A stretch of 64,000 nt of DNA from Pirellulales bacterium (GCA_963733035.1 CAVTBU010000009.1:160001-224000), one strand, 5' to 3'; counted from the first letter of the stretch, positions 46,615 through 64,000 are shown. The notes: generated by a model not told the origin, from the sequence alone. Translations and numbers: made by a program.

Positions 46615-47036
46615 CTACGTCCACAGGTTCCGGTCGAGCGTGCGGTAGTTGATCGCCTCGCTGATGTGCTCGGGACGGATCGACTCGCTGGACTCGATGT
46701 CGGCGATGGTACGGGCGAGGCGCAGGATTTTGTCGTGCGCCCGGGCCGAAAGGCCGAGTTCGGTCATCGTGGCGCGAAGGAGATTCATACAGGGGTCGTC
46801 CAAGGGGCAGAACTGCCGAATCTGCCGGTGCGTCATGCGGCCGTTGTGACGGGTGCCAGTTCCGGCGAAGCGAGCTTGTTGCACTTCGCGGGCGGCTTCC
46901 ACGACCTCGCGCATCTGGGCGCTGGAGGTGCCCGGCGTTTTCGCCGAAAGTTCGCGGAAGGGAACGGCCGGCACTTCGATTTGGATGTCGATGCGGTCGA
47001 GCAGGGGGCCGGAAATCTTGGCCATGTAGCGTTCGA
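46615..47036 (-). pseudogene. comM: 3' fragment of a YifB/ComM Mg-chelatase-like ATPase, interrupted by the island
   Basis: VERYMAKISGPLLDRIDI...LGLSARAHDKILRLARTIAD...HISEAINYR; an in-frame TAA and unrelated sequence lie immediately upstream. Confidence 0.92.
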
Positions 47037-47041
47037 CTTAC
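47009..47041 (-). repeat. att-like site 1 (comM/island junction), 33 bp
   Basis: ccggaaatcttggccatgtagcgttcgacttac is the exact reverse complement of 52701..52733. Confidence 0.9.
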
Positions 47042-47231
47042 GGAACCTTAGAAAACCTTACGCCGGAAATGATCGAAGCTTTAGGGGTCATTGATCGGGT
47101 GTTCGACGGCTCGGCTATCCCCCAGGAGAAGCCACCCAGCCCCATGCCTAAGGCAATCTAACCGTTTCCGCCGCATTCGGGGCCACGGAGGGCGCGGGTG
47201 CACCACCTACGCAACAGGGAGATTGACGACG

Positions 47232-48014
47232 ATGTGTCTAGTTGAATCAATCGACCGGGCAATTGAGTTTGTCCGTGAACATGAGCTGCTAATGACGGAG
47301 GACGATGTGGATGAGCTAATACGGATCGCGGGCAGGGTCGTCGAGTTGGCTTTCCGCAGCGGCCTTCATTATGTTCTGCCGGGCATCGACATGCGTTCGC
47401 TGGTTGAATATCCCAGCGTGTCGGAGCCTCCCGTTGTATTGTCCGCCCTCAACGTGCCGGGCGATTGGAGTCGTGATGTTCTTAACCTGGAGGGTGAAAC
47501 ACTTGAACGTGCGTTTCTGCCGTGCGTGCCGGACCGTTGGTACGAAGCAATGATGATTCTACGATCTCTGGCCTGCCGTGACGCTCCTGCGGAGGAGCCG
47601 AACCAGCCCCAACCCAAGAAGCCCAAGGCAAAGGGCATGGGCCGAGAGGAGGTATTCAAGCGACTGGTGGAGCTGTGGCAGCAGGGAGAGCCGTTCACCA
47701 CTTGTGAGGAAATGGCTGAGCGGTTTGGTTGTTCTGATACCACCGTCCACCGAGCAATCCAGCGCAGTGAGAAGCTAAAGGCTTGGGCTGCGAAAGGGCC
47801 GAAGCGTACCCAACGGCTCGATGACGTAGTGCTAGACCGGACGGCTCAGAGCCGGGAGCCCGCACCGGACGATGACGCCCAATTGCGAGAATTGATTGAA
47901 CAGGCCGAACCGTCTTTGCGAGCATTCTTACACACAGTGCCACCCGAGAAACTGCGGCAGATGTCGGCCGATGATTTGAAGCAGCTAGTAGTCAATCCTG
48001 AGTGCAGAGCCTAG
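47232..48014 (+). CDS. Hypothetical protein with C-terminal HTH (putative regulator)
   Basis: TCEEMAERFGCSDTTVHRAI HTH pattern; GGAGA RBS. Confidence 0.65.
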   Translation: MCLVESIDRAIEFVREHELLMTEDDVDELIRIAGRVVELAFRSGLHYVLPGIDMRSLVEYPSVSEPPVVLSALNVPGDWSRDVLNLEGETLERAFLPCVPDRWYEAMMILRSLACRDAPAEEPNQPQPKKPKAKGMGREEVFKRLVELWQQGEPFTTCEEMAERFGCSDTTVHRAIQRSEKLKAWAAKGPKRTQRLDDVVLDRTAQSREPAPDDDAQLRELIEQAEPSLRAFLHTVPPEKLRQMSADDLKQLVVNPECRA

Positions 48015-48133: not shown

Positions 48134-48355
48134 ATGAACGACGGTACTGCTCCCCGGCTGCGTACGCCGGGCATTATCGCTGTGGAGTTAAAGGCTCCAC
48201 TCTCCCGAGTGCTCTACGTCTTACGCACTCGCCCCCACATTCGTCCGGCTGCCTACGCTGGCACGATCCGCCTCTACCGCGAAGACGCTGTGGCGATGGT
48301 CCGCCATGAGCTCAACGCGATTGACTCTAGAAAGGGGGGCCGAAGCGATGCCTAA
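48134..48355 (+). CDS. Small DNA-binding protein (excisionase/AlpA-like)
   Basis: 73 aa, TPGIIAVELKAPLSRVLYVL...GTIRLY winged-HTH pattern; overlaps the helicase start. Confidence 0.6.
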   Translation: MNDGTAPRLRTPGIIAVELKAPLSRVLYVLRTRPHIRPAAYAGTIRLYREDAVAMVRHELNAIDSRKGGRSDA

Positions 48356-49943
48356 GCGTGACGACTGCAGGAGGGAAGACCCTATTGCGAAGCGGCCCGA
48401 GTTCAAAAAACGCCTCAAAGAAGCTGAACTGGCATACCAGGTGCGTGACAAGAGGAGCATAGGTGAAGAGCTTACGCCAGAGGAAGAAGACATCTACCTG
48501 TTGGACGTTGCTCGACGTACGGAGCAAGCCCTATCCAAGAGAGATCCAAACGCCAAGTCACCGGCTCGTGCACCACTCCTCACGAGGCGGACGAAACACG
48601 ACTCAACCGATGAGCAAAAACTAGATCGGCTCCGACGTGAATGTGCGGAGTTTAACGGACCACCGACCCTTGGCCCGCACGGTGACCTGCGCACGATGGC
48701 CCAGGTGTTGGCTTTGCTTCAACATGCCACGCCATTGCGTGACGCGTTCCTGGAGGGAGTTGGTATTCCACCGTCCGCTCTCTCAGTCCGTGTTTGTGAC
48801 CGACTATCCCACGGGATTTTGGAGGATCTTGACCGCACGGAGGCGTCAGGAATCTGGGATATACCCTGGGAGAAGCTAGAGATTGATCGCCAGGAACGTC
48901 GTCCACGCCAAGGCATCAACACCCGTCGATTGTCGGACGTTTTGGCCCATGAAGTCGAATGGCAGTGGCCAGGCGTGACCGCCCTAGGAAAGTTGACCCT
49001 GTTCAGCGGCAATCCAGGCGTGGGTAAGACCTGGCTGGCGTTGGATATCATAGCCCGACTTACAACCGGTCGCCCTTTTCCGCTCCAGGCGAATCCGCCC
49101 AACGTTGACCGTAAATTTCCAAAGGGTGAATTACTTGTCGGCGGGTCAATCCGGCGCAATGCGTTGTTCATAAGTGCGGAAGACGCAGACGAAGATACCG
49201 TCAAGCCACGAATCGAGCTACTTGGTGGCGATTCGACGCGGATTCACACGTTGGACTTCATTTTTGAGAACCGCAATAGAAGAACCCTCTCGCTCGCGGA
49301 CCATATCAACTATTTAGACAAGTGGCTCTTTTCTGAGCCGATGGTTGAACTCGTGGTGATTGACCCGCTAACCGCGTTCCTGGGGAAAACAGACAGTCAC
49401 AAGAACGCGGACGTGCGAGCCGTCTTGGAGCCGTTATCGAAAGTGGCGGAAAAACGACGCGTAGCCATCATCGGCGTCAACCATCTCACCAAGGGAACGG
49501 AAGGATCAGCCGTACATCGCTCGATGGGCTCGATTGGCTTTATGGCTGCTGCCCGAGTCGCATGGCAAGTCACTGCCGATCCTGATGAGCCAGACCGTAG
49601 CCTAATGCTGCCCGTCAAGGTCAACATCGGGAAGACCCCACGGGGCTTAGCGTTTCGGCTCAGCGAAACGACCGGCATCGAGTGGGAACAGGAAAGCATT
49701 GATCTGACCGCTGACGAAGCCCTCAACGGACCACGCGAGAGCAAGCTTGACGACGCTAAGGACTTCTTGCGCAACCTGCTGCGAGAGGGGCCAATGCCTG
49801 CGACGGCGGTGGAGGACGCAGCCGCGAAGGCAAGAATCTTCGGATCGACACTCAAGACCGCCAAACGGCAACTCGGCATCAAGTCCGAAAAGAGCCCGGC
49901 ACCGAACGGCGGTTGGGAGTGGCGGCTACCGGAGCGTCGGTAA
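48348..49943 (+). CDS. AAA_25 / RepA-type replicative helicase
   Basis: EWQWPG..ALGKLTLFSGNPGVGKT (Walker A), SAED, VVIDP (Walker B), HLTK, GSIGF, KVNIG. Confidence 0.85.
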   Translation: MPKRDDCRREDPIAKRPEFKKRLKEAELAYQVRDKRSIGEELTPEEEDIYLLDVARRTEQALSKRDPNAKSPARAPLLTRRTKHDSTDEQKLDRLRRECAEFNGPPTLGPHGDLRTMAQVLALLQHATPLRDAFLEGVGIPPSALSVRVCDRLSHGILEDLDRTEASGIWDIPWEKLEIDRQERRPRQGINTRRLSDVLAHEVEWQWPGVTALGKLTLFSGNPGVGKTWLALDIIARLTTGRPFPLQANPPNVDRKFPKGELLVGGSIRRNALFISAEDADEDTVKPRIELLGGDSTRIHTLDFIFENRNRRTLSLADHINYLDKWLFSEPMVELVVIDPLTAFLGKTDSHKNADVRAVLEPLSKVAEKRRVAIIGVNHLTKGTEGSAVHRSMGSIGFMAAARVAWQVTADPDEPDRSLMLPVKVNIGKTPRGLAFRLSETTGIEWEQESIDLTADEALNGPRESKLDDAKDFLRNLLREGPMPATAVEDAAAKARIFGSTLKTAKRQLGIKSEKSPAPNGGWEWRLPERR

Positions 49944-50445: not shown

Positions 50446-50533
50446 CTTCCTGAATGGGGACATACGATTGTTATTAGCGTATAACCCACTTGGGTGGTTA
50501 GATATCCCCTCATTCATAGGAGAGACTAGCGAG

Positions 50534-51139
50534 ATGGCTATAGACTATTCAAAGTTGATTGGGAAGCGTTCAAAGTTGATCCCCATCGTCCCAACTTCGG
50601 ACCTGTACTTAGCGAACCTGGCAAGAGACTGCGCCGACGGGCACCGCTTCGCCAGAATCTTTAGGGATACATGGCGTCAGATTCCATTGGGGGATCGGCG
50701 GCGAATGGTGAAGCATTGGCACACCGATGAAAGAATGGATTCTGGCTGGTCCCACCCGCGTATATCGCGGAGGATGGAGCGGGAAAGATTTCCCATCTCG
50801 CGTTCTGATTACATTGCGAGTATCCAGCTAATTGCGGGCTGGAATAAAGAATATATCTACCCACACTATCTACCGGACGACGCCGAACATTGCGGTGCGT
50901 TTGTCACTGTCGCCGCAATGGGTCATAAGTTATGGTTCCACGCGCCATCGGTTGCACGGATGCCGGACAATGTTGTGGCGAACTTGATAGCCAAGGGGCT
51001 GGCTCATGTGTATCAGTGGGCGACAGAGCCGGAGCTGTTTGACGATCCAGATGACCCAGGCAACACGGAGTACCTTGAAGGGGACGCCAACCAGAAAGTT
51101 GAGAGTTGGGGCTTTGAACTGTACTCGATTGAGGAATAG
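50534..51139 (+). CDS. Hypothetical protein with degenerate zincin-like motif
   Basis: LIAKGLAHVY...EGDAN..VESWGF; AGGAG RBS. Confidence 0.55.
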   Translation: MAIDYSKLIGKRSKLIPIVPTSDLYLANLARDCADGHRFARIFRDTWRQIPLGDRRRMVKHWHTDERMDSGWSHPRISRRMERERFPISRSDYIASIQLIAGWNKEYIYPHYLPDDAEHCGAFVTVAAMGHKLWFHAPSVARMPDNVVANLIAKGLAHVYQWATEPELFDDPDDPGNTEYLEGDANQKVESWGFELYSIEE

Positions 51140-51165: not shown

Positions 51166-51206
51166 CCATCTACAGAATCCAACAACCCACTACGCCTACC
51201 CCTAGC
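51166..51206 (+). repeat. 41-bp direct repeat, copy 1
   Basis: ccatctacagaatccaacaacccactacgcctacccctagc, identical to 58873..58913. Confidence 0.95.
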
Positions 51207-51261
51207 ACTCACGGCTGGCGAATCGCTTCGCTTTATCGTGTTGCAGTCAATGAAGTGCCTG

Positions 51262-52449
51262 TCAGTCTGCATCGCCAAACGCGAGCAGCTCACCGCCTTT
51301 GCTTAGAAACAGCAGTTTCCCATTGGTCATCAAACCTTCGATTCGCTCGCTATCGGAAGCACCGATCTTCCATTTCAATTCGCCGTTGGCTGCGTCTAGC
51401 CCGTAGAGCTGGCCGTACAAGGTGGCAACATATACCAACCCGCCACCGAGAAGAGGCGGATCATAAATCGGCGCACCATGACCTGGAACATAATCGCATT
51501 TGAATTTCCAGATCATCTTGCCAGTTTCTGCGTTGAGTCGATAGACGCTCCCGTTGAGGGATCCAAAAAATACAGCGTCGCCTTGCACGGCGGCAGCGGC
51601 TTCCACCTCGAAGCCGCAATGGAAATCCCATTTAACCAGGCCAGTTTCCCTGTCAAGGCAATACAAACGCCTATCCTTTGAACCGATATACACATACTTT
51701 TCAGTGACAACAGGATTGCCGTAAATCCAACCCTTGGTCTGAAAGGACCATTTTACCTGCGCCGTCTCGCAATTAATGGCAACGATTCGCGACTGATCAA
51801 AGATAGGCTGAAACAAGGTCTTTCCATCGGTGGCCGGCATCCTGGGCCTGGCTCCATCAGCGCCAATTCGGCCTCGCCTAGCATCGAAACCGGGCGGCGA
51901 CGGTGGTGCGTCCTTCAGCAAGTCGACAGTCCACTTGCAAACGCCAGACTTTGCATCAAATGCATAGACTAAGCCGTCTTCCGCCATGAAAACCAACAAA
52001 TCGCCGATCATCACCGGCACGAAACCTTGTGAGCCCGTCTCCCGTGTCCAAACCACGTTGCCGTTGGAGGTGTTAATCGCGACCACGTATTTCTCCGTCA
52101 AAAAGTACGCAACGTCGGCCATGACCAAAGATAATTTCAGTGGCGCTGCGTACGCTGGGCAGTTTGCATACCGTAGCAATGTTCCGTCAGAAGCTCGGCA
52201 TGAGCTCAGCTGCTGGCGATCCACCGAATAAAGGAGGTCGCCAGCAGGAATCACGTTCGTTCCATGCTGTCTCCAGACAACCTTTGGTTCGTGTTCCAAT
52301 TTCAGTCTCGAATCGCAATTCGTTCTGGCTTGGTCCACTTGCAAAATCGCATCCGCGCCATAAAGTAGCGCCCTCGCATCGAGAGTAAATGACAAGGCCA
52401 TGGCAAGAGCCACACTTGTGTAACGTGCGGGCCGCTTAGTGTTCAGCAT
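51262..52449 (-). CDS. PQQ-binding-like (BamB-type) beta-propeller protein
   Basis: Repeated LYxLDxxTGxxxW blades; signal-like N-terminus. Confidence 0.85.
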   Translation of the reverse strand: MLNTKRPARYTSVALAMALSFTLDARALLYGADAILQVDQARTNCDSRLKLEHEPKVVWRQHGTNVIPAGDLLYSVDRQQLSSCRASDGTLLRYANCPAYAAPLKLSLVMADVAYFLTEKYVVAINTSNGNVVWTRETGSQGFVPVMIGDLLVFMAEDGLVYAFDAKSGVCKWTVDLLKDAPPSPPGFDARRGRIGADGARPRMPATDGKTLFQPIFDQSRIVAINCETAQVKWSFQTKGWIYGNPVVTEKYVYIGSKDRRLYCLDRETGLVKWDFHCGFEVEAAAAVQGDAVFFGSLNGSVYRLNAETGKMIWKFKCDYVPGHGAPIYDPPLLGGGLVYVATLYGQLYGLDAANGELKWKIGASDSERIEGLMTNGKLLFLSKGGELLAFGDAD

Positions 52450-52643
52450 GACGATTTTCCCCAAGGTGATTAACGAGCCAAGCGAAGAGAGCTCAGCGAC
52501 AAAAGATCCTGGCAAAGATCACTATAGCGAAGGTGCGCCGAGCGGTAAGTGGGCTGCCTACCCTTGACCGCCAAGCTGCTCCCGAGCGGCAACACCACGG
52601 AGATCAGAAACAGCATTCCGCGGTCTTGCAAATCTCGGGACTC

Positions 52644-52668
52644 ACAACCCACTACGCCCACCTCAATC
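52644..52668 (+). repeat. Degenerate partial copy of the 41-bp repeat
   Basis: acaacccactacgcccacctcaatc vs acaacccactacgcctacccctagc: 15-bp exact core, 21/25 identical. Confidence 0.7.
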
Positions 52669-52700
52669 CAGCTCCTCTCGCACGTTAGTTATAGGGCTCA

Positions 52701-52733
52701 GTAAGTCGAACGCTACATGGCCAAGATTTCCGG
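52701..52733 (+). repeat. att-like site 2 (inverted copy of the comM junction)
   Basis: gtaagtcgaacgctacatggccaagatttccgg; contains the TAG of the recombinase on the minus strand. Confidence 0.9.
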
Positions 52734-54299
52734 GGCGTTGGTGACAGGTTCCTGGTTTCGCATCCAGACGATGCCGCGCTCCAGTCGGTACTTGGACCGC
52801 TTGCCCCAGGGTCGCTTATCCGTGAAGATGTCCACGCGCGAGATTGACCCGCGGAAGAATTGCCGCAGTAGATGTGGATCGGCTTTCGTGGCAGCCTCCC
52901 TGAAGCGTCCAAACCACTCTAGAGCAGCTTCGACCCTCCTGTCTATGTCATCGCCCTTCGTGCGTGAATTGGACGCACAGGACGCCAGACGGGCTTCTGC
53001 AGCCACACGTTGTCGACGCAATCCTCTGATCTGCTCTTGTACGTCGTCAAGCAGATCGGCGTCGACTTCCACCAGACGTTGCTTGGCCTTGGCCAGCTTC
53101 GCCTCGATGGCATCAAGTTCACGACGCAGTGCCTGCGGCTCGGGTTCCCGTTTCAGTTCCTTCAGTTGGCGTCTCATCGAGGATGCCAACTGCGCCAGGG
53201 TCTCGGGGTTGTAGTACCGTTCCTGCAGGCCATCCAGCACGCCGGCAACGATTTCATTCTGGCGTAGGGTGTTGCGGTCGCAGTACGTCTTCCCGTGCTG
53301 GCGGTATCCGTAGCAGGTGTAGTGGTGCTTGCCGTTCGACAAATCGCCGATCATCTTGTGCCCACACTTGCCACAGCGCAGCACTCCCGAGAGTACGAAA
53401 CCACCGCCGCTTGGGTGCGGTGTGGAGCAGTTCCTGCGCTCGGCCAACTGCTGCTGCACCCGGTCGAACGTATCCCGGTCGATAATCGCCTCATGGTGAT
53501 CCTCGAAGACGATCCAGTCGGCCGCGTTGTTCCGTTGCTCGGGGCGGCCCTTCCGCTTGTATTTCGACATGCAGCGCATGTTCCAGATGTAGTCTCCCAC
53601 GTAGACCCGGTTGCGGAGCATTCCAGCGATTCCGTTCGCTGTCCAGCCCTTCCCCTTGGGTGATGGTCGGCCTGAGTTGTTCAGCTCGTCGGCCAGCCCG
53701 CGCAGGCTCTTGGCCGCTAGGTACTCGGTGAAGAGCCAACGAACGAGCGCGACATCCTCTGTTGGCCCCAGCAAGAGTCGCTTATTGACCGCGACGTACC
53801 CCAACGCCGGCTTGCCGGATGCCCACAGGCCCTGCTCTGCGAGGCTAGTCATGCCGCGCGTGACATTCCTCGACAGATCGGTCAGGTATTGGTTCTTAGC
53901 CTCCTGCTGAATGCCGTACAGTACTCGACCAGCGAAGTCCCCCCAATCGATGAACCCTTGGGCGACGGTCGCGAGATGTACGCCAGCCCTGCGCAGTGGA
54001 AAGATCCAGTACCCAGCCTCGAGGGAATCAAATCGCCCGAACCGATCAATATCCCAACACAGGATCGCTTGGAACTTCCGGTGTTGTCCGTCTCTGACCA
54101 TCGCTTGGAATTCACGCCGCTTGTCGGTCGCATCGCCGCTGATTCCCTCGTCGATGTATTCACGAACGATGTGATAGCCGTTGGCCTTGGCGTACTTCTC
54201 GACTGCCGTCCGTTGGTCAGGAATCGAGGTTTCCTGTCGGTCGGTGCTCATGCGGTAGTAGGCCACCGCAGGGATGTAGTTTTCATTCGTCGCAATCAC
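52713..54299 (-). CDS. Large serine recombinase (integrase) 1
   Basis: YYRMST, DEGISG, DRFGR, recombinase domain (GY, LRNRVYVG, HEAII), zinc ribbon CGKCG/YTC/YC, coiled coil. Confidence 0.95.
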   Translation of the reverse strand: MIATNENYIPAVAYYRMSTDRQETSIPDQRTAVEKYAKANGYHIVREYIDEGISGDATDKRREFQAMVRDGQHRKFQAILCWDIDRFGRFDSLEAGYWIFPLRRAGVHLATVAQGFIDWGDFAGRVLYGIQQEAKNQYLTDLSRNVTRGMTSLAEQGLWASGKPALGYVAVNKRLLLGPTEDVALVRWLFTEYLAAKSLRGLADELNNSGRPSPKGKGWTANGIAGMLRNRVYVGDYIWNMRCMSKYKRKGRPEQRNNAADWIVFEDHHEAIIDRDTFDRVQQQLAERRNCSTPHPSGGGFVLSGVLRCGKCGHKMIGDLSNGKHHYTCYGYRQHGKTYCDRNTLRQNEIVAGVLDGLQERYYNPETLAQLASSMRRQLKELKREPEPQALRRELDAIEAKLAKAKQRLVEVDADLLDDVQEQIRGLRRQRVAAEARLASCASNSRTKGDDIDRRVEAALEWFGRFREAATKADPHLLRQFFRGSISRVDIFTDKRPWGKRSKYRLERGIVWMRNQEPVTNAPEILAM

Positions 54300-54381
54300 A
54301 ATCCCGAGCCTCCATGGTTGAGATCAACAGTTGACATTGAGAAAACCAGATCGGCGACAATTCGTCAAGGAAACGCCACCG

Positions 54382-55047
54382 CTAGACCTCTCCCAATCTG
54401 TGGATTGAGTAATCCTCGACCTTATCCCAAAGGATGGTCACTACGCCGTTTTGCGTCATCACCGCAATGCCCGGATCGTTGTAGAGCACGTACCCGGTCG
54501 GCCCCGCGTCGTTATGACCGATGATAACCTTCCACTGCTGGGGAATCGGAACTTTGATGCCTTCAATGCGATGGAGTTCAATAAACCGTCCACTGTTTCG
54601 CAATTCGATGCACGCCTCAGAGAATTCCTCGAGTTGCGATACAGCCGACTTGGAGAGTTGCTGGTTCACAACTGTTTCTACTAGTCCAAGCGTTAATGCG
54701 CGACTCACGACGGACGTGAACGATCCAATAAAGAAGAGCCCGCTGCTGAAACCCTTGAACTTGGCTTCGATTTGCCGCTGGATGCGTTCAGCGGCACGTA
54801 CAAAGCCAACATCGAACATGAGGATTGCAGAACAGACGTGCTCACGACCGGAAACCATTCGTATTCTGGCCACGATGGGGTCCGGTGGGACGGGCTCAGC
54901 GAGTGGTGGCTCCATGCTACCGCCGACCATTTCGTCGGTAAGGCGGACAGGCTGTTTGCACGACGGACATGACACGACCCGGCCGACTAGTCTCTGGTCA
55001 TACTTAATGCGTCGGCCACACATGGGACAATTCGTTGTGGCACTCAT
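54382..55047 (-). CDS. Hypothetical protein with N-terminal zinc ribbon
   Basis: CPMC...CPSC, Pro-rich linker, unknown C-terminal domain. Confidence 0.65.
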   Translation of the reverse strand: MSATTNCPMCGRRIKYDQRLVGRVVSCPSCKQPVRLTDEMVGGSMEPPLAEPVPPDPIVARIRMVSGREHVCSAILMFDVGFVRAAERIQRQIEAKFKGFSSGLFFIGSFTSVVSRALTLGLVETVVNQQLSKSAVSQLEEFSEACIELRNSGRFIELHRIEGIKVPIPQQWKVIIGHNDAGPTGYVLYNDPGIAVMTQNGVVTILWDKVEDYSIHRLGEV

Positions 55048-55123
55048 GCACGGCAGCCCTCGCGGCTTGGATTTGGAAATATATCCCCGCCCCCAGTTCG
55101 CCCAGGGGCGGGGTCAGGGACGC

Positions 55124-55384
55124 TCAAGTCTCGTATCCGCCTATCTCCTGCCCAAGACCATGTCCTGCAGGATCGGCCATGATGTCCGCAAGGGTTGCGG
55201 CCCAGCCGCCGTCATCACCGCAACCGCGATTGTAGCCTTCGATGTACGCTTGGGCTTCGAGCGCGTTGTCCGCGATGTGGAGCAACGTCGGGGCAACATC
55301 CGGCCAGCACACAAAGATGGGCACGGGTGCCTCGCGACGGTTCGGGTCACCAAGGGTCAGATCGTCATCGTTCCAACGGACCAT
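55124..55384 (-). CDS. Small hypothetical protein
   Basis: MVRWNDDD... preceded by an AAGGAGG RBS. Confidence 0.5.
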   Translation of the reverse strand: MVRWNDDDLTLGDPNRREAPVPIFVCWPDVAPTLLHIADNALEAQAYIEGYNRGCGDDGGWAATLADIMADPAGHGLGQEIGGYET

Positions 55385-55649
55385 GGCAGCACCTCCTTGC
55401 GCCGCGAGGAGCGCAGCAAAACAGCCACAGGCCCGTTGATCGTTGTCTGGGTGCCGAGACACCCTGCGCAGCCTCACGGTATGCGCACCGGTCAACGGGC
55501 TTGCGGCCATTCTGTCGACTTGACGGCATGGTATTCGACTCTCGGGTTTAGACGCCCACGAATCTAACAATCTGGTCAGCGCGAGACAAGTTAACATAAA
55601 ATGCCGCGAACGTTGTTGGAACCATCCATCGAAGTAGGATAATCCCAAA

Positions 55650-56264
55650 ATGGTGCTTTCGACTGTCGATTGGCTATCCAGTGAATGGGTAATGGTGGCG
55701 ATTGCCCTAATTCAGTTGGCCGCAACTTATTTTGCTTACAAGGTCGCGGGCGAGGCCGCATCCGCAGCCAAGGACTCAGTTACGATCGGCCACCTCACAG
55801 TGGAACAGATGCAACTCGAACGGCGTGCTTGGCTGACTTGCGAAACACCTCAAATCGAGCCATTTGAAATTGGTAAGTCGGTGCGATCCACGGTCAGCAT
55901 CAAAAATGACGGAAACACCCCCGCAGTTGTCAATCGGCAAATCGCTCAGGTGCTGGTGACGGATGCTGGTGGTGATGCGCTCGCAGAAATGGTCAAGACG
56001 GTTGAGCGTGAAATAGAACAATCAATGGCGCGAGAAGATGTCGTGGCACCCAATGCTAAGGTGGTTTTCAAAGGTGATCACGGCCTCCATTTAACGAAGG
56101 AACAGATCGATGCCATTTCTGTCGGCCAATGCGCCGTATACATACTTGTCCGCGTCAAGTACTGCGACATGTTCGGTGTTCGCCATATCACCCAGGGTTG
56201 TTATGTGTACACCCCTAGTGTGAAGCAGGTGTGGGGTTACCATGAGTTCAATTTCATGACTTAG
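55650..56264 (+). CDS. Hypothetical protein, N-terminal membrane anchor
   Basis: TM helix, then RAWL and a beta-rich domain. Confidence 0.65.
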   Translation: MVLSTVDWLSSEWVMVAIALIQLAATYFAYKVAGEAASAAKDSVTIGHLTVEQMQLERRAWLTCETPQIEPFEIGKSVRSTVSIKNDGNTPAVVNRQIAQVLVTDAGGDALAEMVKTVEREIEQSMAREDVVAPNAKVVFKGDHGLHLTKEQIDAISVGQCAVYILVRVKYCDMFGVRHITQGCYVYTPSVKQVWGYHEFNFMT

Positions 56265-56305
56265 CGTCGGTCACGGCAAGCAACCTCAATTGCATTTGGA
56301 GCGAT

Positions 56306-56908
56306 ATGGTGCCACTACCCGATGCGGAATTCTGGCTGAAGACCCTGACTCCTTGGGCTGCGATTGTCGGCGCCGTTACAGGCGCCATAGGCCTAGGGCT
56401 CGGTATCTACAACCTGGTCCTGGCGCGAAAGTCACACAGAGTTAAGGTAGTGATTGAATGCAGTCTAGGCGGGAGCAATGTAGGGAAGGCGGAAGGAGGG
56501 GAGCCGATTCCGCAAGACCGCTGGCTCACGATCAAGATTATCAACTGCAGCTACTTTCCGATTACAGTGGACCGCGTAGGCCTCTCCATTCGGAAGCGGC
56601 GCTTGGCTAGGAGTAAGTTGTTTACGGTTCCACTCCGCAAGGATGTCTTTACCAAGCAATTGCGAATCGAATCTCGAGACGCAACTGAAGTCAAGTTATA
56701 CCTGGGCCGCCGAAGTCGGTTTGAGAAGTCGCGGTCTTTCGAGTATCTCAGCCAGCACACCGAAGAGCAAATTGTCGGTGCATTCGCGCACTTACCCACA
56801 GGTCAGACTTTCGTCGGTGGACGTGAGGATGCGCGAGCGGCATTGCGAGAGATGCGTCAAGTGTTCGAGTATTTCACCGAACATCAACTTCACCACACGA
56901 AGCAGTAG
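56306..56908 (+). CDS. Hypothetical protein, N-terminal membrane anchor
   Basis: WAAIVGAVTGAIGLGLGIYN TM segment, then an IINxSxxPITVDRVG Ig-like pattern. Confidence 0.65.
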   Translation: MVPLPDAEFWLKTLTPWAAIVGAVTGAIGLGLGIYNLVLARKSHRVKVVIECSLGGSNVGKAEGGEPIPQDRWLTIKIINCSYFPITVDRVGLSIRKRRLARSKLFTVPLRKDVFTKQLRIESRDATEVKLYLGRRSRFEKSRSFEYLSQHTEEQIVGAFAHLPTGQTFVGGREDARAALREMRQVFEYFTEHQLHHTKQ

Positions 56909-56912
56909 TCCA

Positions 56913-57830
56913 TCACGAGAACGGCCCCGGGTTCAGCTGGTTCAAGTCCGCGTATGCGAACCGGTTGAACGCCAAGTAGATCGCTGGCTGGCCCTCAGGC
57001 AGGATGGTGCCATCCTCATCGAGGTTGACCGTCATCGGCTCGCCCGTCTTCCGGTCGATGACGCGCTCTGCAGGCAGGCCGGGAAACGGCCGTGCGTAGT
57101 TGCCGTAGTTCAGCGCGGTACCCTTCCAGGTGTTCTCTGCAAACTGCCCCGGGTTGTCCGGGTCTTCCCTCAGCCGGAACCGAATCCGATAGGTGACGTG
57201 CTCGTAGATATCGCCGTTCACGTCCTCCTCGTCGGTTTCGATGTCATACAGCCACGCAGTACCGACCGGTGCGCCGTAGAACTCGGTCGCGCTGATCCGG
57301 TTGTGGAACCCAAGGAACACCGTAGGGTCGAAGGGAAACAGCTCGTAGCGGGTGACCTCGCGAATGTAGTCCCCTGAGGGCCCAGTCACCACAAGCGGCT
57401 CGCCGGCCGCAGTAGCGATGGAGTCTCCGGTCAAGACATCACGGGGCAGCGCCTCGTCGACCGTCTCACACCGCCACTTGCATATCGGCCGCCGGTAGAG
57501 TGGGTTCTCATCCTCGTTCGCGTTGGTGTAGCTGATGTCGTTCGTCAGCTTGGCGGTAACATCCCACAGCAGGCCTGGCAACCCGGTAATCGGGTTGCGG
57601 ATGGGACTCACCTCGCGGGCATCGTGATCCATCACCACCATGCCACGGTACAGCGTGCCGATCTGGGGAACACCGACTGCCCCGCAGATCTGATCGTAGT
57701 CCTCGGTGAGGCTCGAGACGACCTGAAAGGTGCGTGAGGCTTCGCGCTGCTTGTACCACAGCTTGTCCTTCTTCACCAACGCGATCTTGGCCGATTCGGT
57801 TTCGGCTTTCTCGCCAAGGCTAACCGCCAT
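56913..57830 (-). CDS. Hypothetical phage-associated protein
   Basis: 305-aa ORF coupled to the upstream CSD gene, GGAGG RBS; function not recognised. Confidence 0.6.
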   Translation of the reverse strand: MAVSLGEKAETESAKIALVKKDKLWYKQREASRTFQVVSSLTEDYDQICGAVGVPQIGTLYRGMVVMDHDAREVSPIRNPITGLPGLLWDVTAKLTNDISYTNANEDENPLYRRPICKWRCETVDEALPRDVLTGDSIATAAGEPLVVTGPSGDYIREVTRYELFPFDPTVFLGFHNRISATEFYGAPVGTAWLYDIETDEEDVNGDIYEHVTYRIRFRLREDPDNPGQFAENTWKGTALNYGNYARPFPGLPAERVIDRKTGEPMTVNLDEDGTILPEGQPAIYLAFNRFAYADLNQLNPGPFS

Positions 57831-58036
57831 CAGTCGAGCACCTCCACTCGCTCAGCACGCGGGCCACGGCCGGTGTCCTTGCCCAGCTCGAACTCGACGC
57901 GCTTACCGACGAGGTCGCTATTGAGTCTGCACCGGACGAGCGCGGAATGATGAAAGAATACGTCCTTGCTGATGTCCGCGCAGACGATGAAACCGAAACC
58001 GTACAGGTCTTTCACTGCCGAAACCAAACCCGTCAC
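57830..58036 (-). CDS. Cold-shock domain protein
   Basis: YGFGFI (RNP1), DVFFHHSAL (RNP2), VEFE..GRGPRA; GGAGG RBS before GTG 58036. Confidence 0.85.
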   Translation of the reverse strand: MTGLVSAVKDLYGFGFIVCADISKDVFFHHSALVRCRLNSDLVGKRVEFELGKDTGRGPRAERVEVLD

Positions 58037-58154
58037 CGCGATGGCCCTCCGATAGTGTTTCGTGGCGGGCCGCAGTCGCCGAACTACGGACCCGCCGCAC
58101 GGCCGAGGCAACTCAATCAAGCCGTGATTTCCTTGTTAGTTTGCTACGCCTGGT

Positions 58155-58866
58155 TCAGCTGGCGTCACCGCTCGACATGATGGCGAACTGCTCATCGCCC
58201 TGTGCCACGCCGAAGTCGTGGTAGCCACGCCATTGCATGCCCAGGGTGTTGAAGTCGGTCTGGCTGGACTCGATGGTCGGAACCGCGCGGCCGTTCAGGA
58301 GGGCGACCACGATTGCAGAACCAATTGAAGGTTCGGACATCAGGAACCACACAGTGCTGCTCTGGTTGCTGATTCCGCTGCCGTCCGGCTTCTTGATGCC
58401 GGTCACGTCCAGGTACTTGCTCTTCACGGGACGGTAGCGGCCTTGGTAGATGTTCTCGGTGCCGATCTGCGATCCGTTCGCGTCGACCGACAGTAGGGTC
58501 GTCTGTCGATACAGATTCGTCGCGGTGACGATCTGGGCAGTGCCCGTGAGCAGGATGGCTGGATCGGCCATAATCGGCTTTCCTCCTGCACCGGTGAACT
58601 TGCCGAAGGCGATTTCCCCGGCCTCCAGGCCCCCGATCGACAGCACATCATCGATCAGGTTGTTGTTGCCGACCGAGAAGAAACTGCCCGTGTTCGACAG
58701 TAGGGTGTCGTACACCTCCGATTCGATGGCCCAAACAGCACCATCAGCCAGACCGTTGAGCACCTGACGGAAGGCGTCCAGGTCGTCGTTGATGATGTGC
58801 CGGCGGTCGAGCGAAAGCATCCGCCCGCGGGTCTCCGCCTGCACGGTACGCTTCGAGTCCGACAGC
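58155..58866 (-). pseudogene. C-terminal fragment of a Mu-like (gpT / ClpP-fused type) major capsid protein
   Basis: ETRGRMLSLDRRHIINDDLDAF, VALLNGRAVPTIE, DFNTLGMQWRGYHDFGV; the frame is closed by TAG next to the 41-bp repeat. Confidence 0.75.
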
Positions 58867-58872
58867 TATTCT

Positions 58873-58913
58873 CCATCTACAGAATCCAACAACCCACTAC
58901 GCCTACCCCTAGC
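58873..58913 (+). repeat. 41-bp direct repeat, copy 2
   Basis: Identical to 51166..51206; ~200 bp upstream of the resolvase. Confidence 0.95.
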
Positions 58914-59039
58914 CGAAACCGCAGCTGATCCTCGCCCGGATCGTAAAGCGTCAATGTCGCTGCGCTAGCCCCGTCGATTCCCGAGCGTTCTGCCCCTAGC
59001 TGCCCCCTCTGACCGTAACGTTTCGGCTCTAGTCGATAA

Positions 59040-59070
59040 TTTACTACGTGTGTGGTAGAGCGTAGACTAA
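59040..59070 (+). repeat. Dyad-containing repeat upstream of the resolvase
   Basis: tttactacgtgtgtggtagagcgtagactaa, 24/31 identical to 59770..59800; CTAC-N7-GTAG. Confidence 0.65.
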
Positions 59071-59114
59071 GGGTAACGGTACGTATGTTCACTACGATAC
59101 AGGAGGGGCGAACC

Positions 59115-59714
59115 ATGAAGCATATTGCGATCTACTTGCGGGTATCCACGACCGGACAGGACACGAAAAGCCAGCTACCCGACCTGGAACGATGGGCTGC
59201 GGCTCAATCCGATCCGGTCAAGTTCTACAGCGACAAGGCGAGCGGTAAGACGATGGACCGGCCGGGCTGGGCGAAGCTAGAGGCAGCGATTCGACAGGGC
59301 CGCGTTAAGGCTGTCGTAGTGTGGAGGATTGATCGACTCGGCCGCACCGCCAAAGGGCTTACTGCGCTGTTCGACGAACTACGCGAGCGGAAGATCAACC
59401 TAGTCTCGCTACGCGATGGCCTGGACCTATCGACCCCGGCCGGGCGGTTGATGGCGAACGTGCTTGCGTCTGTGGCTCAGTATGAAACCGAAGTGCGGGG
59501 CGAGCGAGTAGCAGCCGGGCAAGCCAAAGCACGGTCGCAGGGCAAGCGTTGGGGCGGCTCGCAACCGGGAGTGCGGAAGAAGGTCACCGATACGCAGCTC
59601 AAGGCTATCCACTCGATGCGTGCGAACGGCGAGCGTATCACCCATATCGCCACCGCTCTGGGGCTCTCTCGGCCCACGATCTATGCCGTCCTACGCGAGC
59701 CCGCAGCAGCGTAA
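59115..59714 (+). CDS. Small serine resolvase/invertase with C-terminal HTH
   Basis: YLRVST, DKASG..RPG, RIDRLGR, STPAGRL, IATALGLSRPTIY; AGGAGG RBS. Confidence 0.95.
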   Translation: MKHIAIYLRVSTTGQDTKSQLPDLERWAAAQSDPVKFYSDKASGKTMDRPGWAKLEAAIRQGRVKAVVVWRIDRLGRTAKGLTALFDELRERKINLVSLRDGLDLSTPAGRLMANVLASVAQYETEVRGERVAAGQAKARSQGKRWGGSQPGVRKKVTDTQLKAIHSMRANGERITHIATALGLSRPTIYAVLREPAAA

Positions 59715-59824: not shown

Positions 59825-60220
59825 ATGCCCAGAGTCAGCAGGGGCACCCGAACCAACCAAAGCCATAAGGGCCGAGTCTTGCCTCCCAAGTACACAGCCG
59901 GGTTTCTCACAACGCTGGACGGCCGCACTGAGTTGGCCCGTGGTCTACGCGAGCGGTTTGACTCGATTGTGGCCGATCTGGGCGGACCCGGAGAGCTATC
60001 GCAAATCAAGGCATCGCTGGTTGAACGGTTTGTCTGGCTGGAAGCATCGTTGATGAGCATCGAAGCAGCGATGGCCGAGACGACCGACCCGAAGCAGTAT
60101 GCCGACCTAGTTGCCCGCTGGACTCAGGCTTGCAACACGCTGCTAGGCATCGGTAAGTCGCTCGGCATTGACCGCAAGCTTGGCTCGGCGCCTTGGCTGG
60201 CGGAGGCTAAGCAAACATGA
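59825..60220 (+). CDS. Hypothetical protein, candidate terminase small subunit
   Basis: 131-aa helical protein (LDGRT..AR, DLGG..LS, LGIDR) with an ATGA overlap to the large subunit. Confidence 0.55.
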   Translation: MPRVSRGTRTNQSHKGRVLPPKYTAGFLTTLDGRTELARGLRERFDSIVADLGGPGELSQIKASLVERFVWLEASLMSIEAAMAETTDPKQYADLVARWTQACNTLLGIGKSLGIDRKLGSAPWLAEAKQT

Positions 60221-61845
60221 TCGACGCCCAACAGTACCAGCTCTATGCCTCCAATCCGGCTGCCTTCCGCGATGATCTCAACGTAGAGGTAAGCGGCTCG
60301 GTCTGTCGCTTCGGTGATATCCAGGACGACTGGCAGCGTCGTGACTTTGAATCCCTAGACCCGGCTTGGCTGCGCTGTACAGGCAGGGACCACGGCGACA
60401 ACGCAATACGGACACGCGGCTACCTGGAACGCGGACGCGGACACTCCAAGACAACCGACCTAGCGATGATGGCCATCTGGGCCTTGGCGTTCGCCACTCG
60501 CTCACTGCGGGGCTACTGCTTCGCTGCCGACAAGGATCAAGCCGCGTTGCTCCACGATGCGATGCGTACGCTCGTGCGCTTGAATCCCTGGCTGGCTGAG
60601 ATCCTAGAAGTTCAGCGGGAACAGGTTGTAAACGTCGCACAAGACCATCGGGGCAACGGGAGCCGATTAACGATCTTCACCAGTGACGTCGGATCGTCCT
60701 ACGGTATCCTCCCGGACTTCATCATTGCCGACGAACTAACGCACTGGGCTGGTGATGGCTCGCTCTGGTACTCGATCATCAGCTCTGCCGCCAAGCAGAC
60801 GAATTGCGTGCTGGTCGTTATCTCCAACGCGGGTTTCGTCGACTCATGGCAGTGGAACGTCCGGGAAGCGGCTCGCAACGATCCTAGCTGGATCTTCTCT
60901 CGGCTCGATGGGCCAAGGGCTTCTTGGCTGACCAAAGATCGACTAGCCGAACAACGGCGCATGCTTCCGCCCATAGCGTATGACCGGCTGTGGGGAAACC
61001 GTTGGAGTTCAGGCGGTGGCGATGCCTTAACGGAGGAGGATATCCAGGCCGCATTCGACAACAACCTGCGGCCGATGACCGGTCGTGAATCAGATTGGGT
61101 ATTCGTAGCGGGACTGGATTTAGGGCTCAAGCGTGACGGCTCGGCCGTGGTTGTACTGGCGGCACCGGTCAACGGTCGCAACGGCGGTAGGATTCGCCTA
61201 GCTCATCATCAACTCTGGCGTCCTCAGGATTCAGGCGGCAAGGTCAAGCTGACGGAAATCGAAGACCATATCAAAAAGTTGGATCGGCGGTTTAACCTGC
61301 GATGCGTTGGCTTCGATCCATGGCAAGCCGAACACATGGCCCAACGCCTGGAAGTCCATTCCCGGCACCGTAGCCGCAGCTCTCGCTTTCGCTCGATAGA
61401 TGGGCCCTGGATGCGGGAGGTACCGCCCACAGGCGGCAACCTTCGCACAATCGCCAACCTAACCATCGAGACGTTCACGGATCGTCGGTTAATGCTCTTC
61501 GACTGTCCGCCGTTGGAGCGTGACCTACGCAAGCTGCGAGCGGAAGAGAAGAGCTACGGCGTTCGCCTTACCAGCCCACGCGATGAACATGGCCACGGCG
61601 ATAGCTTCACAGCCCTTGCCAATGCCTTGCTGCTGGCCCATGAGATAGCCGGTGAAAAGGTAATCACGCTCCAGGCTTGGGGCAGCGGGATGCCGTACGA
61701 CGATGGCGATGAGGAAGACGACCGGCACGCGATTGACGACTACCTGGAAGAAATGGAGTACCTGGAGAGCTTGCCTGATGGACCAGAGCGAGTGATTCGA
61801 GGCATCGAACACTGGGAGAACAACACGAATGACCCACTACTTTGA
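60217..61845 (+). CDS. Terminase large subunit-like protein
   Basis: ERGRGHSKT Walker A, FAADKDQA, FIIADEL Walker B, ISNAG, GLDLGLKRD nuclease motif, FDPWQA, HGD. Confidence 0.82.
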   Translation: MIDAQQYQLYASNPAAFRDDLNVEVSGSVCRFGDIQDDWQRRDFESLDPAWLRCTGRDHGDNAIRTRGYLERGRGHSKTTDLAMMAIWALAFATRSLRGYCFAADKDQAALLHDAMRTLVRLNPWLAEILEVQREQVVNVAQDHRGNGSRLTIFTSDVGSSYGILPDFIIADELTHWAGDGSLWYSIISSAAKQTNCVLVVISNAGFVDSWQWNVREAARNDPSWIFSRLDGPRASWLTKDRLAEQRRMLPPIAYDRLWGNRWSSGGGDALTEEDIQAAFDNNLRPMTGRESDWVFVAGLDLGLKRDGSAVVVLAAPVNGRNGGRIRLAHHQLWRPQDSGGKVKLTEIEDHIKKLDRRFNLRCVGFDPWQAEHMAQRLEVHSRHRSRSSRFRSIDGPWMREVPPTGGNLRTIANLTIETFTDRRLMLFDCPPLERDLRKLRAEEKSYGVRLTSPRDEHGHGDSFTALANALLLAHEIAGEKVITLQAWGSGMPYDDGDEEDDRHAIDDYLEEMEYLESLPDGPERVIRGIEHWENNTNDPLL

Positions 61846-62311
61846 ACGTATGGCTAAAGAGGCCGAACACTTCTATGCATTTACAGACCGCATGGGTTCT
61901 GAGCCGGTGTTTGCCGGGGGATGGTGGTACTTCAAGAACGGGGCTGTAAGCGATGGTTTCCGGTCGCATCACGAACCGCCAGAAGACCCTAACGAATTGC
62001 TCAAGAACCGATACCGCTATGCCGTCACAAGACTCGACGAGCTGCTAGACCTATACATCCACAACAAAAAAGTGATCGCCGAGCAAATTGACATCCATCG
62101 CATGGGGGCAGGACCAATGCCCGCGTCGGGCTGGGACGACGGGATGAAATCGCTCCGATCAAAAGTCCAGGTCGCTAGGGCCGTCGTCCGCTTGCTGTTG
62201 AAGAGACACCTACCGGACGAACAACCTGATGACGATTACGACAAGAACGAAGCACGGCGAGAGCTGACAGACAGCGCCCGTCGCACACTCGTCAAACTAG
62301 AGCGAGAGTAG
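61829..62311 (+). CDS. Hypothetical protein
   Basis: 160-aa ORF overlapping the terminase end; GGAG RBS. Confidence 0.6.
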   Translation: MTHYFERMAKEAEHFYAFTDRMGSEPVFAGGWWYFKNGAVSDGFRSHHEPPEDPNELLKNRYRYAVTRLDELLDLYIHNKKVIAEQIDIHRMGAGPMPASGWDDGMKSLRSKVQVARAVVRLLLKRHLPDEQPDDDYDKNEARRELTDSARRTLVKLERE

Positions 62312-62315
62312 AGGC

Positions 62316-63149
62316 ATGCTGACGCTTACCGTCAACCTGACCGCCGCAGCTCGCAGCGAATCAATCAACGGACGGCCCTACCTGGTCGCTCCAATGACGT
62401 TGATCGTGCCGGGAGTCTTGAACGGCAGCAGGGGCCCGTTGCTCTATCCGCCCGAAGAGATTGAACGGAGCGTAGCGGCCTGGAACGGTGTACCGCTCGT
62501 GTTGGGCCACCCTCGCAACAGCAATGGCGTTCCTATCTCGGCTCGCTCGCTGGAGATTCTGAACCGGATCGGCCTAGGTTTCGTCCAGGGAGCCCGCACG
62601 GAGAACGGCAAGCTGATGGCGGAAGGCTGGTTTGATGTAATCCGCATGAAAGAAGTCCATCCAGCGGCCCTTGCTCGACTTCAAGGCGGACTACCGCTTG
62701 AACTGAGTACGGGGCTCAACACCGACAACTATCGGGCCACGCCTGGATCAACCTACAACGGCCGAGCCTACCATGCCGTGGCTCGCAACTACGAACCCGA
62801 CCACCTAGCAATCCTGCCGGAAGACAAAGGAGCCTGTTCCCTTAACGACGGATGTGGAGTCCTAAACATGCGATATGAAGATTTCAACCAATACCCCCAA
62901 CAGCTTGTTCACAACGGAGTGGTCTACCAGCCGGTAGGTCCAGTAGCCAACGACCTGAATGAAGAGCTGCTGGAAGAGCCGACGATCAACTGGCGGGAGT
63001 GGGCCGGCTGGGAAGATCCCAAGCCCGCAGCTCAGCCTTGCTCGAATCGTGCCGCAACAGAGAACGTCCAAGCTGATCCGAACGACATCAACGCCGAGAA
63101 GCTTGAAGAGGCGGATATCAACTGGGCCGAGTGGGCGAAAGGGAATTGA
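62316..63149 (+). CDS. DUF2213-type prohead protease-like protein
   Basis: PGVLNG, WNGVPLVLGHP, ELSTG, YNGRAY, PDHLAILP..KGACS..DGCG. Confidence 0.8.
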   Translation: MLTLTVNLTAAARSESINGRPYLVAPMTLIVPGVLNGSRGPLLYPPEEIERSVAAWNGVPLVLGHPRNSNGVPISARSLEILNRIGLGFVQGARTENGKLMAEGWFDVIRMKEVHPAALARLQGGLPLELSTGLNTDNYRATPGSTYNGRAYHAVARNYEPDHLAILPEDKGACSLNDGCGVLNMRYEDFNQYPQQLVHNGVVYQPVGPVANDLNEELLEEPTINWREWAGWEDPKPAAQPCSNRAATENVQADPNDINAEKLEEADINWAEWAKGN

Positions 63150-63520: not shown

Positions 63521-64000
63521 ATGTCCAAGAAGCTGATGCCGGCCGCAGGCTACCTTCGTAAGTCAACGGCTGGAGAAGGTAAGGAAGGTAAAGAGCGTCA
63601 AGAAAAGTCCATCCCTACTCAAAAGGCTGAGATTGAAAAGCTGGCCAAGGCAGAGGGCTACAAGATCGTTCGCTGGTACGCCGATCCCGGCATCAGCGGA
63701 TGGAAGAGGGGCGTCAAGCGTCCAGACTTTACCCGGATGATTGCCGAAGCGCAGCAGCTTCGGGATATCCAAGCCATCGTCTGCGACGACATCGACCGAT
63801 TTAGCCGTGCGGATATGGATGAGGTCCAAGCTGATGTGTTCGCTCTGAAACAGGCGGGAGTTCAGTACATCATTACCGCAGCCCAAGGCGTCTATGACCT
63901 GGGCAGCCACGGCACTGACTTCGGTAAGGTTGTAAAGTTCATGGCCGACGTGTGGGGCTCGAATCAATTCAGTCGCAAACTGTCTCGCCGGATAGCTCGG
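63521..64000 (+). CDS. Large serine recombinase 2 (5' part; runs off the right edge)
   Basis: Hand translation MSKKLMPAAGYLRKST...QEKSIPTQ...YADPGISG...KRPDF...DDIDRFSR...FSRKLSRRI; missing from the ORF track. Confidence 0.9.
   Translation, partial: MSKKLMPAAGYLRKSTAGEGKEGKERQEKSIPTQKAEIEKLAKAEGYKIVRWYADPGISGWKRGVKRPDFTRMIAEAQQLRDIQAIVCDDIDRFSRADMDEVQADVFALKQAGVQYIITAAQGVYDLGSHGTDFGKVVKFMADVWGSNQFSRKLSRRIAR

Follow-up and report, generated by a model that had tools for sequence, protein, structure and literature searches.

The window analysed here is a stretch of 64,000 nucleotides from a Pirellulales bacterium (GCA_963733035.1 CAVTBU010000009.1:160001-224000; G000:C9:160001-224000 in our numbering), whose genome, G000, comprises 10 contigs and 6,645,485 bases. 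Toward its end lies E2, an 18.2-kb phage-like integrative element that occupies the gene comM from about 47040 to 65282 and extends beyond the window end. Inside E2, two perfect direct copies of a 41-bp sequence bracket a 7.7-kb block that carries its own large serine recombinase (LSR) gene. An earlier interpretation, referred to here as the sequence-only reading, had regarded the block as a self-contained passenger that docks into the host island through a res-like site and keeps its own comM integration kit. Collectively, the observations below indicate that the repeat-flanked block is most likely a rearrangement scar and not a new kind of nested mobile element; it is best explained as a non-autonomous mosaic fragment. 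The repeats and a related copy of their motif are as follows:

51166..51206, plus strand: left repeat copy (repeat finder and exact search)
52628..52668, plus strand: third, diverged repeat copy (26/41 identical, 63%, with a perfect 15-nt core)
58873..58913, plus strand: right repeat copy (repeat finder and exact search)

The 41-mer, CCATCTACAGAATCCAACAACCCACTACGCCTACCCCTAGC, is perfect at both outer positions (100% identical according to the repeat finder), with 7,707 bp from start to start and 7,666 bp between the copies. This agrees with the sequence-only reading, as does the intergenic position of both copies. Within 64 kb, a match of this length has a negligible probability of arising by chance (about 2e9 position pairs against 4^41 sequences, or about 1e-15). 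Moreover, an exact search of both strands of all 10 contigs found the 41-mer in these two places only; it is therefore not a dispersed repeat, a concern that the sequence-only reading had itself raised. Beyond the 41 bases, the surroundings of the three motif copies do not align with one another. The flanks of the perfect copies show no excess similarity, their alignment scores being reached by 646 of 2000 shuffles on the right and 1499 of 2000 on the left. Promoter and terminator scans returned nothing at the repeats. In a BLAST search of 58845-59125 against the 300 other genomes of the order, the best non-self match had an E value of 0.0026 over 33 nt, and the 41-mer was not covered by any match.

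Based on gene calls and family searches, the block and its flanking repeats enclose the following features (ORF, open reading frame):

51262..52515, minus strand: PQQ/BamB-like beta-propeller gene (Pfam PQQ_2, 3.7e-36), read on this strand as the first gene of E3, a putative former element
52690..52745, minus strand: composite junction 'site 2', in which about 28 bp of comM separate the LSR1 3' end (P1 arm ..AACGCCCCG) from an LSR2-type P' arm, ACTGAGCCCTATAAC
52713..54299, minus strand: LSR1, an intact large serine recombinase (Pfam Resolvase, Recombinase and Zn_ribbon_recom)
54300..56912, mixed strands: uncertain gene calls without a family (plus-strand ORFs 54521-55567, 55650-56264 and 56306-56908; minus-strand ORFs 54382-55047 and 55124-55648)
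56913..57830, minus strand: 305-aa protein (nearest Atlas clusters are phage (Uroviricota) proteins without known function, score 0.97, a lead only)
57830..58120, minus strand: cold-shock-domain (CSD) protein (Pfam CSD, 4.8e-13)
58155..58868, minus strand: 3' part of a capsid gene whose 5' end is cut at the right repeat (Pfam Phage_capsid_4, profile positions 74-250 of 262)

Read on the minus strand, the block runs from the cut capsid gene through the CSD gene, the 305-aa gene, the uncertain ORFs, LSR1, the tandem junction and the diverged motif to the PQQ gene, and it ends 55 bp past the PQQ stop codon. At its other border, the capsid homology begins at 58865, right after an in-frame TAG (58866-58868) and about 7 bp from the right repeat, so the repeat does abut a capsid truncation, as previously described. 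In alignment, the fragment covers residues 446-673 of a capsid fusion protein (673 aa) from the genome G037 (Phage_capsid_4 at 380-669), and G000 holds no second match to this full-length protein. Because the block ends inside the capsid gene, its borders are arbitrary and are not the ends of an evolved element, which contradicts a self-contained passenger. The accompanying view that the block is secondary to the host island is supported. No terminal inverted repeat was found at the block ends when they were read by eye, and no listed inverted pair has its arms at both ends. Pfam, PHROGs, NCBIfam and PADLOC yielded no tyrosine recombinase, transposase or defence family in the block, in which several ORFs lack an assignment. 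The third-position GC is 0.80 in the capsid fragment, 0.74 in the CSD gene, 0.81 in the 305-aa ORF, 0.73 in LSR1 and 0.58 in the PQQ gene; the corresponding values for the E2 arms differ, at 0.60-0.62 (left) and 0.61-0.70 (right).

In the middle of the block, the 348-aa plus-strand ORF (54521-55567) has a codon-position GC atypical for a gene and no Atlas lead, and a strong 12-bp GC-rich hairpin with a T-rich tail lies at 55085-55113 (minus strand) between two minus-strand ORFs. The hairpin and the codon-position GC suggest that the genes of 54.4-55.6 kb are really on the minus strand, in place of the 348-aa ORF. The 305-aa ORF had no match among 50,697 phage records. Separately, a candidate explanation was rejected in which the capsid fragment and the DUF2213 ORF of E2 are halves of one gene split by an inversion: against the N-terminal part of the G037 fusion protein the best E value was 0.017, and the supposed breakpoints carry no inverted repeats.

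Two familiar types of repeat-flanked insertion resemble this arrangement in part. Similar to the attL and attR sites of tyrosine integrases, the repeats are perfect over tens of bases, have sharp borders and flank an insert. In contrast, no tyrosine recombinase was detected in or beside the block, with no Phage_integrase-type match in any block ORF scanned, and one end of the block lies in a capsid gene. For transposons, casposons and CRISPR spacer insertion, a duplication of the target flanks the insert, as staggered cuts followed by fill-in produce. Known target-site duplications span about 2-15 bp. In contrast, the repeat here is 41 bp long, and it encloses an arbitrary fragment with neither terminal inverted repeats nor a transposase.

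To place the block in its context, E2 and the two parts of comM are listed below:

46615..47039, minus strand: comM 3' fragment (Pfam Mg_chelatase_C, 2.7e-32 at 46615-47025)
47009..47060, plus strand: attL2, the left E2 junction (comM arm ..GCGTTCGAC, central TT at 47038-47039, element arm ACGGAACCTTAG..)
47091..48014, plus strand: helix-turn-helix (HTH) protein of the E2 left arm (Pfam HTH_11, 4.7e-5, below the family cut-off)
48306..49943, plus strand: AAA_25/primase-helicase-like replication protein of the left arm (Pfam AAA_25, 3.8e-27; PHROG DNA primase/helicase)
50468..51139, plus strand: 223-aa ORF, the last left-arm gene (ORF list), with its stop 26 nt before the left repeat
58914..59114, plus strand: resolvase upstream region with four CTAG-centred motifs, the first CTAG lying inside the repeat at 58909
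59115..59714, plus strand: small serine recombinase of resolvase/invertase type, 199 aa (Pfam Resolvase, 2.6e-40, and HTH_7; PHROG 'DNA invertase', 1e-52)
59825..60220, plus strand: 131-aa ORF of the right arm
60217..61845, plus strand: large terminase of the right arm (Pfam, PHROGs)
61829..62311, plus strand: 160-aa ORF of the right arm
62316..63149, plus strand: DUF2213 protease-like protein of the right arm (Pfam, PHROGs)
63521..65281 (5' part 63521..64000 in the window), plus strand: LSR2, the second large serine recombinase, with a stop that overlaps attR2 beside the comM 5' fragment
about 65281-65282: attR2, the right E2 junction, ..GTGTTCAGC-TT-GAGGTAACG..
about 65283-66400, beyond the window: comM 5' part (genome search and junction reading)

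E2 splits comM into a 3' fragment that ends at 47039 and a 5' fragment that starts at about 65283, and the two flank the element. The N-terminal part was located by a genome-wide search at C9:225278-225814, which in window coordinates is about 65.3 kb and so falls shortly after the window ends. When joined, the halves read ..CHCTLPQ|VERYMAKISGPLLDRIDI.., in agreement with the continuous comM of the genome G077 (..CHCTVPQIERYMSKISG..), so the E2 crossover is the TT dinucleotide. No long direct repeat is present at the true ends of E2. In LSR2, a Resolvase domain was found in the part of the gene that lies in the window, which is the part scanned, and the frame stays open for 605 aa and ends at the junction. 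Including G000, 4 of the 301 genomes of the order have LSR2 homologs at E <= 1e-80, full-length and up to 54% identical. The closest of them occupies the right end of a comM element, 14.4 kb long, in G099; this element breaks comM where E2 does, and its P' arm begins ACCGAAC (ACnGAAC as in E2). Judging from this junction geometry, LSR2 is the predicted integrase that inserted E2 into comM, and E2 appears to be an ordinary LSR-integrated element. Without the block, E2 would measure about 10.6 kb and would consist of the HTH gene, the primase-helicase gene, an ORF without assignment, the resolvase gene, the 131-aa ORF, the large terminase gene, the 160-aa ORF, the DUF2213 gene and LSR2.

LSR1 belongs to a different family with the same target gene. 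Its matches at E <= 1e-20 occur in 54 of the 301 genomes, including G000, and its closest relative among them, in G077, is 62% identical over residues 3-515. In G077, this homolog lies at the right end of an 11.4-kb comM element, which also carries a CSD gene (42% identity), and the comM break falls at the codons ISG|PLL, some 30 bp away from that of E2. In the metagenome contig L085, a 66% identical homolog has the 3' end ..AACGCCCCG and runs into uninterrupted comM, GATATCTTGGCCATGTAGCGCTCGATTTGTGGCAGCGTGCAGTGG... Both homologs adjoin the comM 5' part through the same P1 arm, ..GCCCCG. Because these relatives sit in comM in two other records, LSR1 is placed, by sequence, in a true comM-integrating family. 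A search of genome contigs with LSR1 returned 21 loci, all at <=35% identity, and one of metagenome contigs returned 19 loci, of which only L085 was close.

Site 2 combines both families. On the minus strand, it reads from the LSR1 end, ..AACGCCCCG, through GAAATCTTGGCCATGTAGCGTTCGACTT, which is the comM sequence between the LSR1-type and LSR2-type breaks, into ACTGAGCCCTATAAC... The comM part is about 28 bp long and stops at the very position at which comM is broken by E2 and the G099 element, whereas it continues uninterrupted in G077 and L085. The LSR2-type arm starts ACnGArC, like the arms of E2 and G099, and 11 of 11 nt (GAGCCCTATAA) equal the inverted G099 P arm. From this composition, site 2 is identified as the fossil attR1-comM-attL3 junction of a former tandem pair made of E1, an element with LSR1, and E3, an element of LSR2 type. 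The junction is inverted relative to comM. In addition, no break interrupts the LSR1-type site (codons ISG|PLL, about 47010) in the resident comM 3' fragment, which reads on to the LSR2-type crossover; site 2 is thus a second copy that originated on a different DNA molecule. Over 33 bp, 52701-52733 and 47009-47041 are identical but inverted, and these shared bases point to a donor from the same or a very close strain.

These observations divide the claim that the block keeps its own comM integration kit. The recombinase part stands, in that LSR1 has comM-integrating relatives in G077 and L085, but site 2 contains neither an attP nor an attL/attR pair. attL1 is absent, and the LSR1 half that is present is of attR1 type only; it continues into about 28 bp of comM and then into an attL3 arm of foreign origin. 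Large serine recombinases require attP and attB for integration. The kit is consequently incomplete, a composite of this kind is not the usable att-like site that had been attributed to the block, and the block is probably unable to move by itself.

The two LSR lineages use comM at distinct sites about 30 bp apart, ISG|PLL for the LSR1 type and PQ|VE for the LSR2 type (window 46990-47045; L067/L068 of G077; L085), which makes tandem occupancy of one gene possible. A further LSR2 homolog, of about 50% identity, lies in comM of G164:C53 (L112/L113), where it shares the strand of comM and has the opposite orientation. The reading frame is interrupted, with one TGA in the LSR1-based search and an LSR2 tblastn match in three pieces, and the capsid gene of the element is complete; this is probably a relative in decay, with a different site or orientation in use.

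Integration at this gene has a precedent. In those passages of PMC9203015 that describe Wolbachia phage WO (sr1WO) prophages, the prophages integrate into a magnesium-chelatase gene by means of a large serine recombinase. Similar to E2, they carry the LSR gene at one end, split the target gene into two flanking fragments and, as far as the same passages describe their true ends, lack a long direct repeat there (PMC9203015). More than one element, with later rearrangement, at the same gene is likewise reported there (PMC9203015). In contrast to the sr1WO prophages as these passages present them, comM here is used by two LSR families about 30 bp apart, a tandem junction is kept inverted inside another element, and the collections searched contained no close relative of E2.

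When the island DNA (46600-64000) was compared with 40 relatives, 38 of the 41 genomes, including G000, matched, almost all in comM only, and the repeats were not covered by the listed non-self matches. The primase-helicase had matches at E <= 1e-40 in 47 of the 301 genomes, in its C-terminal half only and at 35-45% identity, and no left arm like that of E2 was found among them. The terminase search of viral contigs gave one weak locus. The 223-aa ORF has no family in Pfam, PHROGs, NCBIfam or PADLOC, and the window contains no tRNA gene.

The native home of the 41-mer is suggested by the small recombinase. Between the right copy and the resolvase ATG (59115) lie 201 bp, in line with the roughly 200 bp stated by the sequence-only reading. 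The homolog of the enzyme in G003, a genome of the same genus, is 83% identical, and six further homologs range from 61 to 68%. Downstream of the recombinase, G003 has a homolog of the 131-aa ORF (59%) and one of the terminase (57%), followed by ORFs not shown to be related and an LSR; the E2 right-arm order is thus shared at its start, from the resolvase through the 131-aa ORF to the terminase. In the DNA that precedes related resolvase genes, GTAAAG occurs in 6 of 7 loci, and a C-rich motif of CCTACCC type precedes it by 30-70 nt in 4 of 7 (the window, G003 and two G016 loci). In the window, this motif is the right part of the 41-mer, and the likeness crosses the right border (..CCCTAGC|CGAAAC.. 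versus ..CCCGAGC|CGAAC..). Because the right part of the 41-mer and its flank resemble these upstream regions, the right copy and its right flank are probably native to the E2 resolvase module, although this likeness argues for it only weakly.

The region from 58873 to 59114 contains CTAG four times in 242 nt, compared with 0.21 expected. The CTAG-centred motifs, CCCTAGCC, CGCTAGCC, CCCTAGCT and CTCTAGTC, are spaced 56, 31 and 33 nt apart and may be candidate protein-binding sites upstream of the small recombinase. No arm of an invertible segment was found in 58873-59114 among the 25 longest of 93 inverted pairs in 46900-64000. As a separate observation, the 400 nt upstream of the resolvase homologs in L114 (G013:C39) and L115 (G016:C86), which belong to different genera, are identical and include a fourfold tandem repeat of CCAGGCT, which suggests one element shared recently between G013 and G016.

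The position of the right copy was the ground for reading the repeats as res-like crossover sites at which the adjacent small recombinase docks the block and releases it as a 7,707-bp circle. The copy does lie among CTAG-centred motifs in a region partly conserved upstream of related resolvase genes, and the three motif copies are all direct; in these respects, and in the distance of about 200 bp from a small serine recombinase gene, the arrangement is similar to the res sites of Tn3 and gamma-delta. However, the 41-mer contains no inverted repeat of at least 7 nt with at most one mismatch and hence no dyad symmetry. A resolvase crossover site needs two symmetric half-sites, and an event between res sites needs two whole ones; moreover, resolvases resolve rather than fuse. 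Unlike Tn3 and gamma-delta, the shared identity here covers 41 bp without flank homology and not a whole multi-subsite res, and what is duplicated includes neither dyad half-sites nor a transposon or a second recombinase-proximal region. In addition, the block end cuts a gene, and the G003 element, with its 83%-identical recombinase, has a single motif copy and no repeat of at least 18 nt in the 16 kb examined. Collectively, these features speak against docking through a res-like site, to which we assign very little probability. The 'typical res position' is accurate as a description of a conserved upstream region, but it is probably just the native place of the 41-mer.

The third copy of the motif bears on a different possibility. 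All three copies share a perfect 15-nt core, ACAACCCACTACGCC, which occurs exactly three times in the genome compared with 0.012 expected, always on the plus strand and always in this island. With one mismatch allowed, there are no further genomic copies; with two, there are 12 genome-wide against 12.3 expected, and only these three fall in C9:200000-230000. The core copies are all direct and all between gene modules, and the motif lies upstream of the terminase module. Such a distribution would suit a motif that serves an unrecognised module-shuffling or packaging system, with the repeats as its functional ends. In contrast, no copy was found in the 300 other genomes of the order, a degenerate 24-nt pattern spanning both motif variants had 0 matches in metagenome contigs and 0 in viral contigs, and we know of no candidate enzyme; this possibility is accordingly held to be highly improbable. 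A related reading, and a bold one, takes the 15-nt core as the site of an unfamiliar module-exchange system. We also considered and rejected the middle copy as a diverged 'empty site': two flank tests were marginal (17 of 2000 and 51 of 2000 shuffles), and the combined test was non-significant (228 of 1000).

With the cut capsid gene, the composite junction and the unrelated flanks taken together, we somewhat favor the explanation that a foreign fragment was spliced into E2 with duplication of 41 bp of E2 sequence. In the donor, E1 with LSR1 and E3 with a second LSR2-type recombinase would have stood in tandem in comM. The captured fragment would have reached from the middle of the E1 capsid gene, through LSR1 and the E1/E3 junction, to just beyond the first E3 gene. 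It would then have been spliced once into the non-coding stretch upstream of the E2 resolvase gene, where it now lies inverted relative to comM. A staggered break, filled in and end-joined to the fragment, would have duplicated the 41 bp of E2 sequence, and the repeats would be the scar of this event. The arbitrary ends, the mosaic content and the inverted orientation all argue for a one-off splice. Furthermore, the genome encodes a Ku homolog (G000:C5:280178-280726, 6.5e-40), so that end joining is plausible and non-homologous end joining was probably available. Once in place, the block could be lost by rare homologous recombination across the 41 bp.

A pre-existing 41-bp homology could lead to the same arrangement. 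A circle carrying the same 41 bp would have recombined with the E2 copy in a Campbell-type insertion, through RecA or a phage annealing protein, and could loop out again. An insert flanked by direct repeats is the product of such a single crossover, a related motif does lie in the E3 part of the block, and these elements share the motif family. A length of 41 bp also exceeds the minimum for RecA-dependent recombination. However, on the donor the identity would have to span exactly 41 bases between unrelated flanks, whereas the only donor-side motif seen is 63% identical; for this reason, duplication of E2 sequence is preferred over pre-existing homology. Moreover, the junction of the circle would place the 41-mer against the cut capsid gene, so that a prior illegitimate event is needed. 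The circle route thus requires an extra illegitimate join beside the motif, and duplication is preferred over it on this ground as well. We regard the Campbell-type insertion as unlikely, though worth keeping in view.

An error of assembly was also weighed, in which a separate 7.7-kb circle or the locus of a second strain was threaded into the contig at the shared 41-mer. A loop that enters and leaves through one shared sequence gives exactly this picture, and 10 contigs with 92% completeness and 2.9% contamination suggest assembly from a mixed sample. In contrast, contigs of up to 2.99 Mb suggest long reads, which would easily span 41 bp. Both the fossil junction and the cut capsid gene would be present on such a circle too; only the location of the block would change. 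This explanation appears improbable.

Several points weigh against the splicing of a foreign fragment with duplication of E2 sequence. Neither an empty site nor the donor arrangement occurs in any collection searched, and the history is rebuilt from one locus. No bacterial mechanism or enzyme is known to us that breaks DNA with a 41-nt stagger. A functional site is hinted at by the third motif copy, which shares the orientation of the others and has the 15-nt core intact; such a site would allow a site-directed or homology-directed process. The evidence for a native 41-mer consists of short C-rich motifs in four of seven loci, two of them from one genome, and whole-region DNA searches reached only chance level. 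Finally, several block ORFs are without assignment, and one of them may encode an unrecognised recombinase; a free circle or an assembly error at the junctions may also be involved.

The position of the repeat beside the terminase module raises a further, rather improbable idea, namely that the 41 bp mark the physical genome ends of small terminase-carrying elements borne by LSRs, the terminase cutting with a 41-nt stagger or making a 41-bp terminal repeat a short way upstream of the resolvase-terminase module. The ends would in this case have been filled in and the foreign fragment ligated between them; only then would the genome, now larger, have closed into a circle again and entered comM. 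If true, the repeat would document, in nature, both the capture of DNA at phage termini and an exceptionally long end, either cohesive or terminally redundant.

For researchers of mobile elements, it is useful that comM is targeted by two serine-integrase lineages about 30 bp apart, and a tandem-pair junction that survives as a fossil inside a third element provides a worked example of island mosaicism. The 41-bp duplication beside the terminase module is a further point of interest to them.

Other features of the window were also recorded. Just after the primase-helicase gene, dense direct and inverted GAAGGGGGTGAAG-like repeats at 49937-50128 form a long hairpin, for which Rfam gave only sub-threshold matches to microRNA models; it may be the replication origin of E2. 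A 1096-aa protein with Chlamydia-PMP-type repeats adjoins comM (43280-46570, minus strand), and a pair of 92-nt repeats at 42692 and 43992 (83% identity) was reported as internal to it. Far from the block, imperfect inverted repeats at 15951-16165 and 23383-23598 (131 nt at 73% and 65 nt at 80%), about 7.2 kb apart, may be paralogous genes on opposite strands.

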